A stretch of DNA of 32,000 bases from Candidatus Hermodarchaeota archaeon (GCA_048886185.1 JBHLKY010000032.1:5818-37817); one strand, 5' to 3'; shown: positions 1 to 26,403, counted from the stretch's first letter. Notes: generated by a model not told the origin, from the sequence alone. Numbers and translations: made by a program.

Positions 1-25
1 TACAAGAAATTAAATTTATTTTTAA

Positions 26-667
26 TCAAGTAATAAGAATAAGCCCCATTAATGTTCCAAAAGGAATACTTTCTGGTTTTGCATCACTTCCTATTGGGTA
101 AATATCCCATCCAAGTTTGACTGCTAACTGAAAGCAATCAATCCCCACTGCTTCCATACTAGGTCTCGCTTTTAACGTAAATCGGCATTTACTCCCCAAT
201 AAAACAGCACAATCATCTTCCCAACAAAAAGTGAATTTACACGAGCCAGCTCCAAAACCTACCGCCAAATAATGACCATCATAAAACGCTGTACTTTCGA
301 TTTTATTGACAATCTCAGAAATCTTCTGATATGCTTTTACACGTTCTCTACTGGTTTGTTTATTCCGTACAATAACCTCAGGATCCACATTGCATTTAAA
401 TATGATCGACCATCGATATTGTGACACATATCGTCTAGTTTCCTCTGGTTTAAGACTGTGAGGCGGACAATTAGCACAGACACCATATCCAAAACATTTG
501 GGAATTATACATTTTAAGACAACACGATCATCTACTGGAATATGACTGGTTTGGATGAACTTGGCTTCATTAGCGCCTAGCTCCTTCGCTAAGATACAAT
601 ACCTTTCCAAGTCCTTTAAGATTTGATCATCTGGAATGGATAGATGAATTTTTTCCACTTTGGGCAT
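26..667 (-). CDS. DUF2284-family predicted metal-binding (Cys-rich) protein
   Basis: 213-aa ORF with CIIPKCFGYGVCANCPPH, GAGSCKFTFC..DC...CRF and ARPSMEAVGID, the pattern I recognise for DUF2284; GAGG SD-like sequence upstream of ATG. Confidence 0.85.
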   Translation of the reverse strand: MPKVEKIHLSIPDDQILKDLERYCILAKELGANEAKFIQTSHIPVDDRVVLKCIIPKCFGYGVCANCPPHSLKPEETRRYVSQYRWSIIFKCNVDPEVIVRNKQTSRERVKAYQKISEIVNKIESTAFYDGHYLAVGFGAGSCKFTFCWEDDCAVLLGSKCRFTLKARPSMEAVGIDCFQLAVKLGWDIYPIGSDAKPESIPFGTLMGLILIT

Positions 668-1174
668 CGTTTTACCTCATTATCTGTACAATTTTAAACA
701 TCTGGACTTAAGATAATAATTGTTTTCCCTCTTCTTGAATAGATCTTGACTTTAATAAATCCTAATTAACTGAAAGCAATTAAGCCTTTAGTAAAAAGAG
801 CTATTCTTTTGATGGAGTTTGGCTTTGAGACCTTGTGAATAAGTAAGAACAAACAGATAGTGAAGATAGTTCTGATCACATCTTCGCGGAGGACTTTTAA
901 CGCAATAGATGTGTTACTATTGGAGTCATTCATCTAAGCAAAACCTATTATTAAAGAACAGGCTATAAGAGGAGGAATGGATCTAGTGATAAGGAAAATT
1001 ACCTTTTTTTCTTTCCTAAATTGTATGAAGAATCATCTTCCAAATCCACTCATTCAAAATATAGCTTTATATCTAGATTGATGATTCTAATCCTTCTAGG
1101 GAAGAAATTATATTTGAAAAGGGGTATAAAGAATAAAAAATGAAAGAGAGGGAGGGAGTATCCCTTAAGGAGAA

Positions 1175-2884
1175 CTAAACTAGATAATCTTTCGTGGGAG
1201 TTCGGCTTCGGAGAACAACAATGTAGAAACCAATAGTGAGAACGGTCCCAAACAAAGCTTCGGGAAGAACCTCTAGAAAAGTCCGCTTACTTAAAATAAG
1301 ACTAATAGAGTCAAAATAGCCAAAAGGCGTAAAGAATCGTAACCATGATAAATCACTACCTGGGAGAAAAGCGATGAAAATAATTAAGACAAAGAACACA
1401 TAACCAACCATTAGCGTTTTCAGAACATGTTTATGAGGCACAAGAAGTGCAAGAGTGAGGAAGAAGACAAAGATGAAACCGTATCCCCAAATAAAAATGA
1501 TGTAACTTGTCAAAGTAGGGATTAAATCTGATGTTCGATTAAGAAGAACTTCCATGATGAGGAGTGTTAAAAAACTAGCAAGAAGTGCTATAGTTAAATA
1601 GATAAGTCCAGCGATAGTTCGACTGACTAGAATACGGTTAGCAGTTTTAGGAAATGTCCAGGTTATTTCAGCATAGCGTCTTCTATAATCTCGCATGATG
1701 ATATCATAAATAACAATGAGAATAAAGGGAGCTAACACCATCCAGGCAAAGCTGAAAATCTCAAACGCAAGATATGTTTCTATTGTCATTGGGAGATCTT
1801 GAAAAGTGTTTCCAAATAACAATGCCTCCATAAACGGCATATTAAAACTTTGTAAAAGCTCACCAACTTCTTCCTCCACATACATCCCGATAACATAAAA
1901 AGAATAGAATATCATGAATCCTAGAAAAAAGATGAACACAGTTGCATTAGCATGAAGCTGATCACGAACAGCAGGGTATTTCCAACCTAATCGTCCCAGT
2001 AATTTATCCATTGGAGCCCGTACATGAGACAATTTTTGAGAAAATCTCCTTTTTCTGATCTCCTCCGATTCTTCCACAATCGTTTGTTGTTGAACTCCTT
2101 TCTCCAGAAAATCCTTTCTATACAAGAGACTGATTGAAGCAATAACTAGAATGACGACAAGAATAACAACTAATATAATAAACTCTTCATTCCATGTTCC
2201 TGATAAACTTTTACTGACAACATCTGCTTGAGAGAATAAACTCAATTGGCTAAGAGAATCAAGCTCACTAATCTGGTTAGCTGTTAGCTCTACTACTATT
2301 GAAAAAATAATATATAATCCTCCAATTGCATATCCAGTAGTTTTAGAGAAATTGATAGTACATCCGAAAGTAGTGAGAAAAGCTACTGCAATTACAAGTA
2401 AAAATGCAAGAAAGAAACATATAGTAAGATTTGGGACTGCATCCCAAGCATCATTGATGTAAAGAAGACCAATTGCTACAAGATAATTAATGAATGTAAT
2501 CAAACCTATTAAACCAATAACAACCAAGGAATTTTCTAGGAACGAGGTTATTAAAGACTTCGGAGTGGTAAAGAGAATTTCTTTACCATCTCTCTCATTC
2601 AACGGTAATAAATTACTTCCAAGAAAAACACCTGCGATCGGTAAGTACAAGGATAGAGCGAATCCACAGAAAAATATTAACCAAAGAGCGAATCCTGGAT
2701 TATCAGTAGGAAAATCTCCAAGGAAGGACATGAGTCGAATGAATTCTGTGAGTGCTTCTTCACCCGGATAAAACAGAGATATTCCGATTATCAATGCAGC
2801 ATAAAGAAAAATTGATAATCCAAGAACAGTTCGATGGCGAAAACTATGAAGATAAAATCGTTTAACAAGCTTTGATAAGCTCAT
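1175..2884 (-). CDS. ABC-2 type exporter permease, internally duplicated (two fused permease halves)
   Basis: 569 aa, about 12 hydrophobic segments in two similar halves (ERDGKEILFTTPKS / DYRRRYAEITWTFPKT; LSQLSLFSQ / LRFFTPFGY); ATGA overlap with the ATPase gene. Confidence 0.85.
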   Translation of the reverse strand: MSLSKLVKRFYLHSFRHRTVLGLSIFLYAALIIGISLFYPGEEALTEFIRLMSFLGDFPTDNPGFALWLIFFCGFALSLYLPIAGVFLGSNLLPLNERDGKEILFTTPKSLITSFLENSLVVIGLIGLITFINYLVAIGLLYINDAWDAVPNLTICFFLAFLLVIAVAFLTTFGCTINFSKTTGYAIGGLYIIFSIVVELTANQISELDSLSQLSLFSQADVVSKSLSGTWNEEFIILVVILVVILVIASISLLYRKDFLEKGVQQQTIVEESEEIRKRRFSQKLSHVRAPMDKLLGRLGWKYPAVRDQLHANATVFIFFLGFMIFYSFYVIGMYVEEEVGELLQSFNMPFMEALLFGNTFQDLPMTIETYLAFEIFSFAWMVLAPFILIVIYDIIMRDYRRRYAEITWTFPKTANRILVSRTIAGLIYLTIALLASFLTLLIMEVLLNRTSDLIPTLTSYIIFIWGYGFIFVFFLTLALLVPHKHVLKTLMVGYVFFVLIIFIAFLPGSDLSWLRFFTPFGYFDSISLILSKRTFLEVLPEALFGTVLTIGFYIVVLRSRTPTKDYLV

Positions 2885-20349: not shown

Positions 20350-22782
20350 ATGATAGACTTTACCGAAACAAAAGAGAAAATAACAATCCAAGGAGATAAA
20401 CTCAAAATTGAGATATCTCAATTAACAAGGAAGGTAAAAATTTCATCTTTGATAACAAATTTCAGTCTCGATAGAATAGAACCAGCAATAAATCTTTTAA
20501 TAAATAATAAAATAATTACATTATTACCAGTAGGTAGAAGCACCAATTCAGTTATAGAAACTTTAATTTTAGATGAACTTGGAATAGGAAAACAATTTTT
20601 AATAAACCTAGTATTTAATAACACTCATGATAAGAAGAATATTACTATAGAAGCTCAATTAGCGATTATTTTATATGAAGACTCGGATTTTTGTATACTT
20701 AAACTTATTATTCCAAAGGAAGCTTCAAAATTTCTAAATTATTCATTACACTCTTTAGCACCATTAAGAATTACTGATGGAACTATAATTTTAAATGAGG
20801 AAAATAAGACTCATCCTGAGAAAATCACTTTTTTTGAACAAGGTTTTCAAAGCTGGAGCTATACAAAGACCCGTTTATTTAATGAAGCCTTCGAACCTAT
20901 ATTTATTGATGTTTTTGCATCTATCAACCAAAACAAGGATTCAATAATCACTGGACGATATATATCAGAATTTATAACTGCTATTTCTGATATAGAGAGT
21001 AAAGGAAGTTTAATCATAGGTTTTTGCACATTAGCAGACACCTACTCTCGAATTGTAATGGATCACTTAATTGGGCCATCAAAAATTTCTTGGTTAACCG
21101 CATATTCTCAGTTTGATGGCATTCCAATTAATCAATTGAAAAAACAGCCAGTTTGTTCTGAAGAATTATTCATCAGTTTTGAACCGCGTTTTCAAGGATA
21201 CTTAGGATTGATTAAATATGCTGAAGTTACAGGGAAGAAGATGAATGTAACGATCCACCAGCCCAAAGTAGGATGGTGTAGCTGGTATTATTACTATACT
21301 AATATCTCTAATAAAGAGTTGCTTTCAAATGTAAAATACTTTAAACAATCACCAGAAATCTCTGTCGATATGTTACAACTTGATGATGGATATTTCACAG
21401 CAATTGGAGATTATACTTCGTTTAATGATAAATTTTCAAATGGCCTTTCTGATTTTGTTACTTTAACCCATGAACAAGGAAAAACAGCAGGATTATGGAT
21501 TGCTCCATTTTTTGCAGCAGAAAATTCAGAAATATATAGCAAACATCCAGAATGGTTTTTAAAATCGGTAATTGATAACGAACCGTTACCTGTTTGTTAT
21601 AACTGGGATCAAACCGAATATGCTCTAGATCTTACTAATTCAGAGGTTCAAAATCACATAAAAACACTCATTCAAACTATAATAGATGAATGGCATTTTG
21701 ATTTCATAAAAATTGACTTTCTATATGCTGCTTCCGTTTTTGAAAGTGACTATCTCGTAAAGGGATTGACTCGTGCTCAGATCTATCGAAAAGGACTCGA
21801 AATAATTCGACAAAAGATGGGGAAGGAGAAATATCTATTAGGATGTGGAGCGCCTTTGGGCCCAAGCATTGGACTTGTGGATGCAATGCGTATCAGTGAA
21901 GATACTAAAGAGCTATGGGACACTGGAGAGAATCCGATATATGGGTATCCTTGTTTAAAATACGCCTTGATTGGGAGTATTAATCGTTCGTTTATGCATA
22001 ATAATTTTTGGGTTAATGATCCTGATTGTCTAATTCTACGGAAGAAAGAAAGCGAGTTAACATTTGAAGAAGTAAAACTGCAGTGCACGATTTTTGGATT
22101 AACAGGGGGCCAGCTATTATTATCAGATGATATGACAAGGCTTGAGGAGGATAGATTAAGATTAGCTTTAAAGCTAATGCCTCCTTATGCAGAATCTGCA
22201 ATCCCAATTGATACTTTATATGAATCCTTTCCCATACATTATTTGTTAGAAACAGAAACAGAAATAGGATCAAGAGCTCTCCTAGCTGTCATTAATTGGA
22301 ATAATGAAGTTGTTAATCGAAACTTAGTTTTAAAAGATATTCTCACAGCTAGCATGGGATCCTCTTCTCAATTTCTTGTTTTTGACTGGTGGCAAGAAGC
22401 ATTATTAGGATGTTTCAGTTATGAAGATTCAATTATACCTCTTGAGATCCCACCACATGGATGTCGTTATCTGGGGATCATTCCCTATGAAGATTCAACA
22501 CTACCTCTACTGCTTTCATCCACTTTGCACATTACTCAAGGATGTAAAGAGATAAAAAAGCTAAAAATAAGCTCTAATTCCATCGAACTAGGCCTTAATC
22601 AGCGAGGATTGCACACAGGGGAATTATTTTTTTTATTTCCCCAGAATACGAAAGAGATTTCAGCAGAATACCCAATGGCTAAACAATACAATGAGTGGGG
22701 AATCTTATGTCGTCTAAAAATCAGATTATTAGATCAAAAAGATATCAAAATAGAGTTTAAATCAATAGATAAAGGGGAGTAA
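20350..22782 (+). CDS. Alpha-galactosidase, GH36-like (melibiase)
   Basis: GWCSWYYY, LQLDDGY, GLWIAPF, nucleophile FIKIDF, LGCGAP, acid/base MRISED, NDPDCL. Confidence 0.93.
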   Translation: MIDFTETKEKITIQGDKLKIEISQLTRKVKISSLITNFSLDRIEPAINLLINNKIITLLPVGRSTNSVIETLILDELGIGKQFLINLVFNNTHDKKNITIEAQLAIILYEDSDFCILKLIIPKEASKFLNYSLHSLAPLRITDGTIILNEENKTHPEKITFFEQGFQSWSYTKTRLFNEAFEPIFIDVFASINQNKDSIITGRYISEFITAISDIESKGSLIIGFCTLADTYSRIVMDHLIGPSKISWLTAYSQFDGIPINQLKKQPVCSEELFISFEPRFQGYLGLIKYAEVTGKKMNVTIHQPKVGWCSWYYYYTNISNKELLSNVKYFKQSPEISVDMLQLDDGYFTAIGDYTSFNDKFSNGLSDFVTLTHEQGKTAGLWIAPFFAAENSEIYSKHPEWFLKSVIDNEPLPVCYNWDQTEYALDLTNSEVQNHIKTLIQTIIDEWHFDFIKIDFLYAASVFESDYLVKGLTRAQIYRKGLEIIRQKMGKEKYLLGCGAPLGPSIGLVDAMRISEDTKELWDTGENPIYGYPCLKYALIGSINRSFMHNNFWVNDPDCLILRKKESELTFEEVKLQCTIFGLTGGQLLLSDDMTRLEEDRLRLALKLMPPYAESAIPIDTLYESFPIHYLLETETEIGSRALLAVINWNNEVVNRNLVLKDILTASMGSSSQFLVFDWWQEALLGCFSYEDSIIPLEIPPHGCRYLGIIPYEDSTLPLLLSSTLHITQGCKEIKKLKISSNSIELGLNQRGLHTGELFFLFPQNTKEISAEYPMAKQYNEWGILCRLKIRLLDQKDIKIEFKSIDKGE

Positions 22783-23430
22783 TCGTCTGGTGCGTTTGAT
22801 ATAGGATTTATATTCATCACTAAACTCTTCTGAAAGTATTTTCTCCTCTTGATCCATTCGAGGCTTAATCAAGAGGAAACTGTAAAAAATACCCAATAAT
22901 GGTACAATCAAACTCCGAAAAGCTAATTCGGTACCAAAACCTACCATAGCTCCACCAAGATAGATTGGATGTCGAATATATCTATAAATTCCACGAGTTA
23001 CAAGCTGGTGGTCATCTTCGATAACAAGCATTCCACTGCCATATTTTCCAAGTTGAATTCGACTAAAAACCTGAATAATTCCACCAATAATTATAAAGAT
23101 GATTCCAATAACAAATACAATGATATTATTCCAAATTGGAAAATAGTCTTTGATCAGTAATTGGTTTTCGATATAAGCTAGAATAAAGATAAATGGGTTA
23201 ATTAAGAATCCAATCATCAAAAGAAGTGAGTATTTGTTGGCAATTTCTTCTTTTTCTGAGAAAGGTCTTGAGAATGAATCGATATAAGCTACAATATACA
23301 TAAGAATAATTGCTATATGACCAATATCACTGTAAATATCTGGTGAGAGAAGAATAAACCAAATATTGTAGTAAACTACATACCACAGAGTGGGAAAGCC
23401 AATTTTTCTAATAACATGAATGGGCTTCAA
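22762..23430 (-). CDS. Isoprenylcysteine carboxyl methyltransferase (ICMT/PEMT) family membrane methyltransferase
   Basis: About 5 TM segments; HQLVTRGIYRYIRHPIYLG; EEKIL...F..EY..Y...T.RLLP; TTG start with GAGGT SD. Confidence 0.92.
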   Translation of the reverse strand: MKPIHVIRKIGFPTLWYVVYYNIWFILLSPDIYSDIGHIAIILMYIVAYIDSFSRPFSEKEEIANKYSLLLMIGFLINPFIFILAYIENQLLIKDYFPIWNNIIVFVIGIIFIIIGGIIQVFSRIQLGKYGSGMLVIEDDHQLVTRGIYRYIRHPIYLGGAMVGFGTELAFRSLIVPLLGIFYSFLLIKPRMDQEEKILSEEFSDEYKSYIKRTRRLLPFIY

Positions 23431-23730
23431 TTAATAGACCTCTATAAAGGTATAATCTCAGATTAATACCTCTTAATTGAATGTTTATTTCCTATTATTA
23501 TTTTTGCGTGATAGGTAAAGCTTTTAACCTCATGAAAAAGAAACCTATCTGCATGGAGAATCCAGGAATCTCTATGCTAAAACTTGGTGTGATAAAATGA
23601 AATCTTCAATTGCTGTTGGAATGTGGTTTGAAAACAATGGCATTATTGTCACACACCCTAATTTTGCCTAAATATACAATTCTCAACTTTTCCTGGGAGT
23701 TTGAGACAGTAGAAGGAGGTTTTTACTAAG

Positions 23731-23850
23731 ATGTTCTGTGAAACTTGTGGTACAGTTCTCGATGTACACGGACAATGTGTAAATTGTGAGAAGAACAAAG
23801 AATCAAAGACTGAAATACAAGTAGACCTAAGTATAGATATAGTAGGATGA
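23731..23850 (+). CDS. 39-aa zinc-ribbon microprotein (not in the ORF track)
   Basis: Translated by hand: MFCETCGTVLDVHGQCVNCEKNKESKTEIQVDLSIDIVG; CxxC-x9-CxxC; SD AAGGAGGT at 23713-23720; stop overlaps the next ATG (ATGA). Confidence 0.85.
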   Translation: MFCETCGTVLDVHGQCVNCEKNKESKTEIQVDLSIDIVG

Positions 23851-24083
23851 GATTAGTGATGGAGAATGATCCACGGTTCTGTTCAATTTGTAATAAACTA
23901 CTATTAAAACGAGATCGATTCGGTTTTGTTTTAATAATCCGTTGTGATCAATGCAACAAATTAGTACATGATCGTTGTTATTTAGACCATCATTTAACAC
24001 GCCATAATCTCATCGGGATTATAGTCGAATCTGAAGCGAAGAAGGAACTAAGTTCTTTCCTAGAGGATATAGGAAGTCCATAA
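23847..24083 (+). CDS. Small C1/PHD-like cross-brace zinc-finger protein
   Basis: C12xxC15-x17-C33xxC36-x4-H41xxC44-x3-H48H49-x3-H53; coupled to the upstream ORF; T-rich tract after the stop. Confidence 0.8.
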   Translation: MRLVMENDPRFCSICNKLLLKRDRFGFVLIIRCDQCNKLVHDRCYLDHHLTRHNLIGIIVESEAKKELSSFLEDIGSP

Positions 24084-24209
24084 TTGGGTTCATTCTTCTT
24101 TTTGTGTAATTTCAAAACGATAAAAACATCCTTCTCACAGCACAGTATTTTCCAAAAAATAACAGACATTATGAAAAAAAAATAAGTTCGCCCTTAATGA
24201 GGACAATTT

Positions 24210-25061
24210 GTGTTAGTTATACAGATTTTTATATTGCTAGGTGCCATTATAGCTTCATATTTCATAGTAGTATTATGTATTATGCAATTTTTAGCAAATT
24301 TTCCACGAAGATCAGTAGATGATAGCCCTGATTGGGGCTTTACTAAAGATCTGAGAATTCGGACTATCAATGGAAAAAAAATGGAATGCTGGGTTGTATA
24401 CCCACAGAACAAAGAGGTAAATCATAAACCTGCGATAATTCTCATACATGGATGGGGAAGAAATAGAGGTCGCATGGTTTCTCGAGCCAGAATTTATGGC
24501 AAAAATGGATACATAACTATCTTAATTTCTGTAAGAGACCATGGAAATTCAGATAAAGAAATCACAGGCATGAGTATTGTAAGATTCAGTCAAGATCTTG
24601 ATTCTTGTGTAAGATGGTGGGGAAAACCTGTTATAATTTCTGGTCATTCAATAGGAGCTGGAGCTGCACTAATAGTAGCAGCCAAGAATCCTTTGATAAG
24701 GGCAGTGATAGCAGAAGCAACACCTTACGCTTTCCCCCATAGTCTTAAGTACGTTTATAGGCCAGTTTTAAAATGGTTAACGCCTTTATTTTTACCAGGT
24801 ATCAAGATCCTGACTCTATTCAAGTTCAGAAGTTATTCAAAAGAGGATTTTTCTCCTTTGGATGCTGCTCCATTCATTAAAGTTCCAACTCTTCTAATCC
24901 ACGGAAAAGATGATGTAATATTACCAAGTAAATATATACCTCTTCTCCAGAAAAAAATAATTGATTGTATAACCTGGATTCCTGAAAAAACAGATCATCA
25001 CAATATAGAAGAACATCCAGAGTATAAGAATAGAGTTATTAGCTTTCTTGAAGCATTATAA
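24210..25061 (+). CDS. Alpha/beta-fold serine hydrolase with N-terminal membrane anchor
   Basis: LIHGWG, nucleophile GHSIG, acid HGKDD, His in TDHHNI; GTG start with GAGGA SD. Confidence 0.92.
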   Translation: MLVIQIFILLGAIIASYFIVVLCIMQFLANFPRRSVDDSPDWGFTKDLRIRTINGKKMECWVVYPQNKEVNHKPAIILIHGWGRNRGRMVSRARIYGKNGYITILISVRDHGNSDKEITGMSIVRFSQDLDSCVRWWGKPVIISGHSIGAGAALIVAAKNPLIRAVIAEATPYAFPHSLKYVYRPVLKWLTPLFLPGIKILTLFKFRSYSKEDFSPLDAAPFIKVPTLLIHGKDDVILPSKYIPLLQKKIIDCITWIPEKTDHHNIEEHPEYKNRVISFLEAL

Positions 25062-25113
25062 ACATCGTTGCATTAGGAGTCTCTTTTAGTAATCATAAAA
25101 TGGGTATTAACTT

Positions 25114-25605
25114 ATGAGAAACAATAAATTCATTACTTGGGTCATCCCAGGAAAGCTGGCAAGAAGTCCATTTCCACTCTTCCAAGAATTATCTACATTA
25201 GTTGAACTAAACATATTTTTAGTAATCAATCTAACCTCTCAGGGAATACCAAACAGACTTGGAAATCAACTAAGGGCTTCTGGTATTAGGATTAAACGTC
25301 TGCCAATCCCTGATTTTGGCACTCCTAATCAAAACACTATCAATCAGTACCTTCAAATGGTTTGTGAAACAATACTGCAGAACCAAGCTGTTTTAACACA
25401 TTGTATTGCTGGTTGTGGACGTACAGGAACAATGATTGGATTATTCTTAATTACCCATGGATACTCTCCCCTAGTTACTCTAGAGACCATTCATAAAATA
25501 TTGGGTAAAGGGTGTCCAGAAACTGAAGAACAAATAGATCTACTTAAGCAATATAGAAAGAAATGTCCAAATTTCCGTCAGTGTAATGGTAAGATTTCAG
25601 CGTAG
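25114..25605 (+). CDS. Dual-specificity / cysteine-based protein phosphatase
   Basis: General-acid loop IPDFGTP, P-loop HCIAGCGRTG, ETEEQ. Confidence 0.93.
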   Translation: MRNNKFITWVIPGKLARSPFPLFQELSTLVELNIFLVINLTSQGIPNRLGNQLRASGIRIKRLPIPDFGTPNQNTINQYLQMVCETILQNQAVLTHCIAGCGRTGTMIGLFLITHGYSPLVTLETIHKILGKGCPETEEQIDLLKQYRKKCPNFRQCNGKISA

Positions 25606-25614
25606 GGGCAACTA

Positions 25615-26403
25615 ATGGTTATAAGGGTTCCTAATTCTCAGTTCAATTCCATATGTTATATCTTTGATGAACACCAGCACCTTAGGAACTTAATTGAAGC
25701 AATTCCTGCACTTCCAAGGGGTGAACTTTGGATTGATTCTTCAGATAATCCTTCAGTAGCTCTTTTTAAACTCCCTGGGATCCATTTTTTAGGTGGAACA
25801 CCGAATTCAAATGAAATAGAAAAAATATTAGATAAAATTCCTTCAAAACAAGCTATTTTTATTCCAACACAAGAAAAATGGATTACAATCTTAAAAAGAT
25901 ATTTTAAGGATAAATTGAGAAGTTTCGATCGATTCGCACTTTCTGCTTCATCTTTAACAATAAATCATATCCATAATCTACGAAAAGAGCTTCCTTATGG
26001 ATATCATATTAAACAAATCGATCATATAGATTGGAATCAGATAAGAACCTCAATAGGACATTATATTCATATATTTTTCAGAGACATCGAACATTTCAAG
26101 ACTTCAGGAAAAGGTTACTGTGTCAGGAATGATAATCGTGTAATCAGTATGGCTTCATCCCTAGTTCCAGTAACTAGGAGCCTTGAAATTCAAGTGGATA
26201 CAGTAGAATCAACAAAATACCTGAGGAAAGGATTTGCTACAAGAGCTGTTGTTGAACTCATAGAATATTGCTTAAAAAAAGGTATAGACCCTCATTGGGA
26301 TGCTGATACAGAAATTTCCAAAAAATTCGCCCAAAAACTTGGATATTCAAATCCCCAGCCATATAAATGCTATTATTGGGTGAAAAAGAACGAAAAAGGT
26401 TAA
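25615..26403 (+). CDS. GNAT-family acetyltransferase
   Basis: C-terminal EIQVDT...YLRKGFAT, PHWDA...S.KFAQKLGY. Confidence 0.88.
   Translation: MVIRVPNSQFNSICYIFDEHQHLRNLIEAIPALPRGELWIDSSDNPSVALFKLPGIHFLGGTPNSNEIEKILDKIPSKQAIFIPTQEKWITILKRYFKDKLRSFDRFALSASSLTINHIHNLRKELPYGYHIKQIDHIDWNQIRTSIGHYIHIFFRDIEHFKTSGKGYCVRNDNRVISMASSLVPVTRSLEIQVDTVESTKYLRKGFATRAVVELIEYCLKKGIDPHWDADTEISKKFAQKLGYSNPQPYKCYYWVKKNEKG

Follow-up and report, generated by a model that had tools for sequence, protein, structure and literature searches.

Cross-brace zinc fingers, among them the RING, PHD, C1, FYVE, B-box and ZZ types, are hallmarks of eukaryotic signalling and chromatin, and the Asgard archaea have been searched for their precursors. 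Together with MYND, these types reportedly make up the RING-like class of binuclear treble clefs set out by Burroughs, Iyer and Aravind in 2011. PHD fingers carry a conserved aromatic residue ahead of their last ligand pair, typical C1 domains have a Gly and a Gln in their ligand-binding loops, and in many RING and PHD fingers the first knuckle has the form C-[SP]-[IV]-C. The RING-like binuclear treble clefs, in which the last ligand lies at the start of the C-terminal beta-strand, include C1, B-box and ZZ, and a terminal His pair belongs to the ligand pattern of both the B-box (CC/HCCCCHH) and ZZ (CCCCCCHH) (Kaur and Subramanian 2015, PMC4506424).

The finger considered here is encoded in a 32,000-nucleotide stretch of DNA (the window, about 34% GC) from a Hodarchaeales genome of 4.84 Mb (75 contigs, 96% complete), where it forms the second cistron of an apparent operon headed by a conserved leader RNA (Table 1). 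We consider it probable that the protein is a cross-brace two-zinc docking microprotein, derived from the RING/PHD-like fingers of Asgard archaea. The class of finger is already known from prokaryotes; its His-built second site is a lineage-specific variant.

Table 1. The finger gene and the features around it, in coordinates of the window
Feature	Coordinates	Strand	Basis or remark
ICMT/PEMT-family membrane methyltransferase	22762-23430	-	Pfam
TATA-like box TTTTAA	23522..23527	+	columns invariant or nearly so in 9 loci
Conserved structured leader RNA, 172 nt	23550..23721	+	RNAalifold consensus, covariance models
Leader helix P1	23551-23559/23569-23577	+	loop CCAGGA at 23562-23567
Leader helix P2	23587-23594/23647-23654	+	encloses a variable hairpin
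Leader helix P3	23681-23690/23696-23706	+	UCCUGG at 23691-23696
First cistron, predicted 39-aa four-Cys zinc-ribbon microprotein	23731..23850	+	ORF, conservation, dN/dS
Longest finger ORF	23847..24083	+	ORF scan of the window
Second cistron, 74-aa finger protein	23859..24083	+	conservation, models, fold neighbours, dN/dS
T-rich stretch, TTTTT at 24099-24103	24095..24106	+	directly after the finger stop, read from sequence
Alpha/beta hydrolase, DSP-type phosphatase and GNAT_acetyltran protein	24210-26403	+	Pfam

The sequence-only reading had proposed a C1/PHD-like finger with a His-substituted second zinc site, encoded by the longest open reading frame listed in Table 1. That frame, with the residues quoted from it, is present in the sequence and is open from position 23847, but translation probably begins further in: the gene callers and all homologs use the second ATG, at 23859, which gives a protein of 74 amino acids with an N-terminus of the form M-[KE]-x-D-P-R. 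The finger is a real gene, because 16 distinct homologs (46-73% identity, assembled from a protein search and from look-ups in genomes and contigs) share it and the median pairwise dN/dS is 0.155 (codons 2-57), a sign of purifying selection. The protein consists of a predicted binuclear finger (residues 1-50), a hydrophobic segment in which L51 and I52 are invariant, and an acidic tail. The T-rich stretch behind its stop codon is likely an archaeal oligo-T terminator of the operon.

The family is confined to a single GTDB genus of the Hodarchaeales, within the Asgard archaea. The finger is present, as a single copy, in 15 of the 22 genomes of that genus (14 of the 21 others and the window's own), and among the 378 further Asgard genomes in the sample its profile gave no convincing match. 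When 1.84 billion representatives were searched exhaustively with HMMER, six relatives of 70-115 amino acids came up (E 7e-24 to 8e-15) and no other credible one. The long bacterial repeat proteins P0008-P0010, which have only the common word C-S-V-C-N-x-V-L-V-K-Q, were rejected as homologs, as was the next C1_1 match in the host genome (L002), a plain four-Cys ribbon, as a paralog.

In the numbering of the 74-residue protein, the finger motif is C8-x2-C11-x17-C29-x2-C32-x4-H37-x2-C40-x3-H44-H45-x3-H49. Residues C8, C11, C29, C32, H37, C40, H44 and H45 are invariant in the 16 homologs, all of which (16/16) also keep the spacer of 17 residues between the two CxxC knuckles. The His residues put forward for the second site are thus conserved, H44 and H45 without exception and H49 in at least 90% of the homologs. 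In one homolog (P0003) H49 is missing and the preceding position holds a Cys (Cys48), and three others (L010, P0011 and P0012) have Cys48 as well as His49; judged from the alignment, a metal ligand would be expected to swap in this way.

One AlphaFold2 model covers the whole protein, with 12 sequences (pLDDT 74), and a second covers residues 1-56, with 16 sequences (pLDDT 78); the two agree on a beta-hairpin followed by a helix. In both, the C29/C32 knuckle lies between short strands at residues 26-28 and 35-37, and a helix spanning residues 38-48 begins at H37/C40 and carries H44 and H45. H49, or Cys48 in some homologs, comes just ahead of a conserved hydrophobic stretch, x-L-I-[GA]-[IV]-[IV], at the place where the C-terminal strand of a RING-like finger would sit; the models show no strand in residues 50-56, where the mean pLDDT is 55.

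Compared with PDB structures by Foldseek, the finger has as its leading neighbours the third PHD finger of MLL1 (probability 0.89), the FYVE-like domain of rabphilin (0.85), the C1 domain of PKC-theta (0.80) and the DPF of MOZ, with ribosomal zinc ribbons appearing only at a probability of about 0.25; no PDB match reaches an E-value of 0.001 or less, all lying at 0.066 or above. VIA-align was run against 48,161 representative chains, where binuclear zinc fingers fill most rows, almost all of them cross-braced and including RING, APC11 and Rbx1, and again over the Foldseek top 1000, where all 50 rows listed are two-zinc fingers, again nearly all cross-braced (RING, FYVE, C1, PHD, MYND). The Z-scores are 2.1-3.8 (2.6-3.8 in the second run), and tiny fingers rarely reach higher fold-match scores. 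A shape search of the ESM Atlas led to the same classes of finger as the PDB; one neighbour is a B-box cluster, and small Nitrospirota proteins (83-96 aa) also occur, one cluster of them automatically named 'Phorbol-ester/DAG-type'. These neighbours are statistically weak and tied, no single family stands out among them, and the class assignment of the modelled finger rests on a list that is consistent but weak. It does bear out the view that the protein is no ordinary zinc ribbon, the neighbours of the model being nearly all binuclear cross-brace fingers of eukaryotic type, with ribbons nowhere in the lead.

The likeness to the RING-like class lies in eight ligands arranged in four pairs, CC-CC-HC-H(H)H, conserved in the 16 homologs, and in the core CC-x(n)-CC-x4-H-x2-C. 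In the models it extends to a second knuckle placed on a beta-hairpin and a helix that starts from the third pair, and the last ligand precedes a hydrophobic C-terminal segment. The finger differs from the class in that its fourth pair follows only 3-4 residues after the third, on the same helix, and in that it stands alone, at 74 amino acids and in one archaeal genus only.

Profile scores speak for a C1 domain. The finger gives 29.0 bits with Pfam C1_1 (PF00130; cut-off 26.5), all 12 members tested match that family, and the best PDB profile match is the C1 domain of STAC3 (E 0.007), with that of PKC-theta also among the best and the L37a and RPB9 ribbons close behind STAC3. C1_1 was calibrated by scanning 400 Asgard genomes and 14 control genomes: it scores above its cut-off in 117 of the 400 Asgard genomes, against 0 of the 14 controls. 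The Asgard matches inspected comprise the C-terminal C4HC3 fingers of vWA/Ssl1-like proteins (about 390-395 aa), the C-terminal C4HC3 fingers of a second type of protein (about 376-392 aa) and a small RING-H2 protein (L041) with 27.7 bits for zf-RING_2 and 29.6 bits for C1_1, while some Asgard C4HC3 fingers fall just below the cut-off, at 26-26.4 bits. C1_1 responds to the common CC-x(n)-CC-x4-H-x2-C core, and its threshold does not discriminate here; the match is unspecific because archaeal RING-H2 and C4HC3 fingers score alike. The vWA/Ssl1-like proteins (e.g. L042:478-1653) also contain another finger internally, and their architecture recalls that of TFIIH p44/Ssl1.

The finger shares with PKC-type C1 domains a P-x-F-C-x2-C-x2-L segment, a third pair H-x2-C and a single late ligand near x7-x8. 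A specific kinship is not supported, since three defining features of C1 are missing. No His stands 12 residues before the first Cys, only 7 residues preceding C8; as had been observed, no conserved His comes before that Cys at all, nor is there one in the open frame upstream of 23859, and the first strand of C1 is absent as well. The spacer between the CxxC pairs is 17 residues instead of 13-14. The final ligand, a Cys at x7 after H-x2-C in C1, is a His at x8 in the window protein and at least 90% of the homologs, a Cys at x7 being found in P0003, L010, P0011 and P0012 only, and a second His would replace the N-terminal one. The Gly and Gln of the C1 lipid-binding loops are not recognisable in the lengthened loop of the finger (residues 12-28).

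With PHD the finger has in common the first six ligands, the invariant C8, C11, C29, C32, H37 and C40 having the C4HC order, and two of its top Foldseek neighbours, MLL1 PHD3 and MOZ DPF. Eleven of the 12 members match Pfam PHD (PF00628), which the window protein does at 21.1-21.3 bits, under the cut-off of 24. A terminal C-x2-C at least 12 residues after the third pair is lacking, as noted earlier, H44/H45/H49 standing in its place, and the conserved aromatic of PHD fingers is not seen in the finger; a specific kinship with PHD is not supported either. The terminal His-His pair for the second site recalls the B-box and ZZ, from which the finger differs by a third pair of H-x2-C instead of C-x2-C and by negligible sequence similarity; there is no zf-B_box or ZZ match in Pfam, and ANCHR-like_BBOX reaches an E-value of only 0.28 (0.0059 in one member). 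The C4HC3 fingers and small RING-H2 proteins of Asgard archaea (L040-L049) share phylum, core and C1_1 cross-match with the finger. The C4HC3 fingers differ from it in keeping the canonical terminal C-x2-C and in being fused to other domains; hhalign relates them to the finger with 82% probability over the 32 columns of the CC-CC-HC core, and the finger profile does not retrieve them at a genome-wide E-value of 0.001 or less. Taken residue by residue, the finger appears to be neither a true C1 nor a true PHD domain, and its restriction to one genus argues against an ancient link to the lipid or histone readers of eukaryotes, C1 or PHD.

Spacing and predicted secondary structure suggest two zinc ions held by ligands paired in cross-brace fashion. 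Site 1, the treble clef proper, would consist of the N-terminal knuckle C8/C11 and of H37/C40 at the start of the helix, and site 2 of the knuckle C29/C32 in the beta-hairpin and two of the three residues H44, H45 and H49 on and just after the helix. Most likely these are H45 and H49, with H44 as the alternative, because C32-x12-H45-x3-H49 has the classical C2H2 spacing; the remaining member of the invariant H44/H45 pair may have a further role. The last ligand would then be positioned as in RING-like fingers, before the C-terminal strand.

Immediately before the finger, and adjoining it in every finger-bearing locus, lies the gene for the apparent zinc ribbon, with the motif C3-x2-C6-x9-C16-x2-C19 and a variable charged tail. 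Residues M1, F2, C3, C6, G7, T8, V9, L10, C16, N18 and C19 are invariant in its 15 homologs, its dN/dS is 0.11-0.19, and Pfam DZR matches it at 19.9 bits, under the cut-off. A strong Shine-Dalgarno sequence, GGAGGT, occupies 23715-23720, 10 nt upstream of the ribbon; a second, GGTGA, precedes the start of the finger in most loci, and in some there is an ATGA overlap. The ribbon ends with TGA, TAA or TAG, depending on the locus, and the finger follows it after 6, 8, 9 or 14 nt or overlaps it by 4 or 35 nt. Since several loci have both genes in one frame with only a stop codon between them, recoding or read-through from ribbon to finger was considered; it was rejected because the stop varies, the spacing breaks the frame, and a Shine-Dalgarno sequence precedes the second start in most loci. 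By their layout the two are coupled cistrons, and the finger would be translated from a bicistronic mRNA made up of the 172-nt leader, the 39-aa ribbon, its stop, the Shine-Dalgarno sequence and the finger.

No fused or longer form of the finger was found among database proteins. A supposed ribbon-finger fusion (P0004) was rejected, as it translates only with TGA read as Trp, and the extended forms P0011-P0013, in which Trp or a Trp-rich extension occupies the same stop positions, are put down to gene calling. All such artefactual 'fused' or extended entries (P0004, P0011-P0013, L018:678-1025 and L019:1009-1356) come from short Hodarchaeales contigs. The pairing of ribbon and finger is not obligatory, because two genomes (G070 and G071; L037:1690-2040 and L038:1690-2040) keep the leader and the ribbon, followed by about 230 nt with no Cys/His motif. 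A short frame conserved between these two genomes, which are closely related, has a stretch, R-x-N-H-I-x-F-I, faintly like K-Q-D-R-x-G-F-V of the finger, and it may be a decayed second cistron.

The neighbouring genes offer little guidance. Hydrolase, phosphatase and GNAT genes stay together in three other loci (L010, L011 and L013), and in L012 and L013 the hydrolase lies about 3.7 kb from the finger operon; the neighbours were set aside as a functional clue, their synteny being limited to the closest relatives and broken in L012, L013 and the more distant loci. No ubiquitin, E1 or E2 gene is present among the annotated neighbours of the finger.

Conservation is higher in the 220 nt ahead of the ribbon gene than in the coding region itself. 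This stretch contains a structured leader, whose three-helix architecture is the same in each sequence folded alone and in the RNAalifold consensus. Across 20 distinct sequences, 90.9% of the cells are paired, as against 38-57% in slid controls, and 14 of the 27 pairs change on both sides, counts that lean towards the model to which the alignment was fitted. U:G wobbles appear on the + strand, P3 among the helices having G:U pairs. Two invariant elements, the CCAGGA loop of P1 and the UCCUGG segment of P3, complement each other, and a loop-loop (kissing) contact between them is possible. The TTTTAA box, whose centre lies about 26 nt ahead of the base at which pairing in the leader begins, would be the promoter element of the operon, given the usual geometry of archaeal promoters. 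A conserved TATTTT-n3-TAAA(TATA) lies inside the leader, at 23660-23677 (+), about 26 nt upstream of UCCUGG, and could be either an oligo-T terminator or a TATA box; the leader may accordingly be one long 5' UTR, or an upstream small RNA followed by a second promoter. Transcription is predicted to start at about 23551, with an alternative near 23699 from the internal TAAATATA.

Covariance models of the leader (R1 and R2) find one copy in the host genome, at E-values of about 1e-31 to 1e-33. It occurs in 17 of the 21 other genomes of the genus as well as in the window's own, at one copy per genome, and in none of 61 other genomes of the class searched with the same models; no Rfam family matches it. 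In a metagenome scan, a 17-mer from P3 matched 95 stretches; 80 loci were fetched, and the covariance model recognises just one of them (L092) as a true leader. C/D-box and H/ACA identities were considered by eye and dropped, the first as there is no GA beside the P2 stem for a K-turn, the second as there is no conserved single-stranded ACA (L012 has GCC at that place).

The leader is also found in front of other genes. In one sister genome (G065) it lies at L031:1501-1670 (+), 75 nt upstream of a class I aminoacyl-tRNA synthetase gene of the Trp/Tyr type (1746-2825, tRNA-synt_1b), and in another (G059) a second leader copy, at L039:1501-1670 (-), lies 147 nt upstream of a class Ia synthetase gene of the Ile/Leu/Met/Val type (1-1353 (-), tRNA-synt_1). 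Both have the orientation of the gene that follows, and neither is accompanied by ribbon or finger genes. The leader might thus be a regulatory cassette shared with the synthetase genes. A bolder proposal is that it is a new Asgard cis-regulatory RNA governing how both microproteins and, in sister species, class I synthetases are translated, with the ribbon/finger pair as its trans-acting partner or as a co-regulated factor linked to zinc or translation; we hold this to be quite unlikely. If it were true, the archaeal lineage nearest to eukaryotes would possess a leader that works like a riboswitch or binds a protein, and that goes with a cross-brace finger.

What, then, does the finger do, and what else might it be? 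That the finger is a genuine C1 domain of atypical form, homologous to that of PKC and binding a membrane lipid (such as diacylglycerol or an archaeal equivalent), seems very improbable. The case for it is made up of the C1_1 score above its cut-off (29 vs 26.5 bits), the best PDB profile matches to STAC3 and PKC-theta, 24-28% identity to C1 structures in structural alignments, the resemblance of P-x-F-C-x2-C-x2-LL to the P-T-F-C segment of C1, and the C-x7-C of P0003, as in a canonical C1. It has to contend with the missing N-terminal His, the 17-residue spacer and the final His at x8 in at least 90% of the homologs, with the equal scores that C1_1 gives to archaeal RING-H2 and C4HC3 fingers, and with a lengthened loop in which the lipid-loop Gly and Gln are not found. 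Even less can be said for sequential use of the ligands, in which the two CxxC knuckles would form a four-Cys ribbon and the His-rich helix would hold a metal of its own or none; this we rate as the least probable reading of all. The L37a and RPB9 ribbons do score about like C1 in the PDB profile search, and zinc ribbons of ribosome and RNA polymerase turn up at low Foldseek probability, but H37, C40, H44, H45 and H49 lie along one predicted helix and could not wrap around a single ion, the His and Cys of the helix are as conserved as the Cys of the knuckles, the CxxC-x4-H-x2-C core is the signature of a cross-brace, and the top structural neighbours are cross-braced.

The remaining alternatives concern function more than fold. 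The finger could be a minimal RING/PHD-type effector of an Asgard ubiquitin-like system, either an E3-like module docking an E2 or a reader of peptide tails. RING, APC11, Rbx1 and PHD top the structural lists, the first knuckle has the form C-[SP]-[IV]-C, and the profile comparison relates the finger to the Asgard C4HC3 fingers; set against this are the annotated neighbours, devoid of ubiquitin, E1 and E2 genes, the replacement of the fourth pair and its surroundings, part of the E2 surface of a RING, by a short His pair, the PHD score under its cut-off, and a one-genus range unlike that of a core ubiquitin component, and we regard the idea as unlikely. Much the same has to be said, with slightly less hope, of the proposal that ribbon and/or finger bind nucleic acid and autoregulate their operon through the leader RNA or a P3 DNA operator, with the synthetases under the same control. 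It is attractive for the leader, which is more conserved than the coding region, always stands ahead of the ribbon, is found before class I synthetase genes too (G065 and G059), and has in P3 an inverted repeat beside the Shine-Dalgarno sequence. The finger itself fits less well, its sequence having no marked basic surface and its tail being acidic; the G:U wobbles of P3 suit an RNA structure better than a DNA operator, and two genomes have the leader and ribbon without the finger.

We thus favor the two-zinc docking microprotein. It would act as a small zinc-stabilised module that docks onto another macromolecule, more likely a protein than a nucleic acid, possibly together with the ribbon microprotein; a complex prediction of finger, ribbon and 3 Zn scored 0.00, which is evidence neither way. 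In origin it would be a lineage-specific, stand-alone offshoot of the RING/PHD-like fingers abundant in Asgard archaea, with the ligand pattern CC-CC-HC-HH.

A Pfam C1 label in an Asgard genome is, on these results, no evidence of a C1 domain: in roughly one in four of the genomes scanned, C1_1 cross-reacts with archaeal fingers of the RING/PHD-like kind. A finger family found in a single genus can tell us little about the origin of eukaryotic C1 and PHD domains. What the Hodarchaeales do provide is a minimal, stand-alone finger in which a His pair on the helix would replace the fourth ligand pair, which illustrates in compact form how such fingers can rebuild their second zinc site. The leader held in common with synthetase genes is the more unexpected item, and the one most worth a study of its own.
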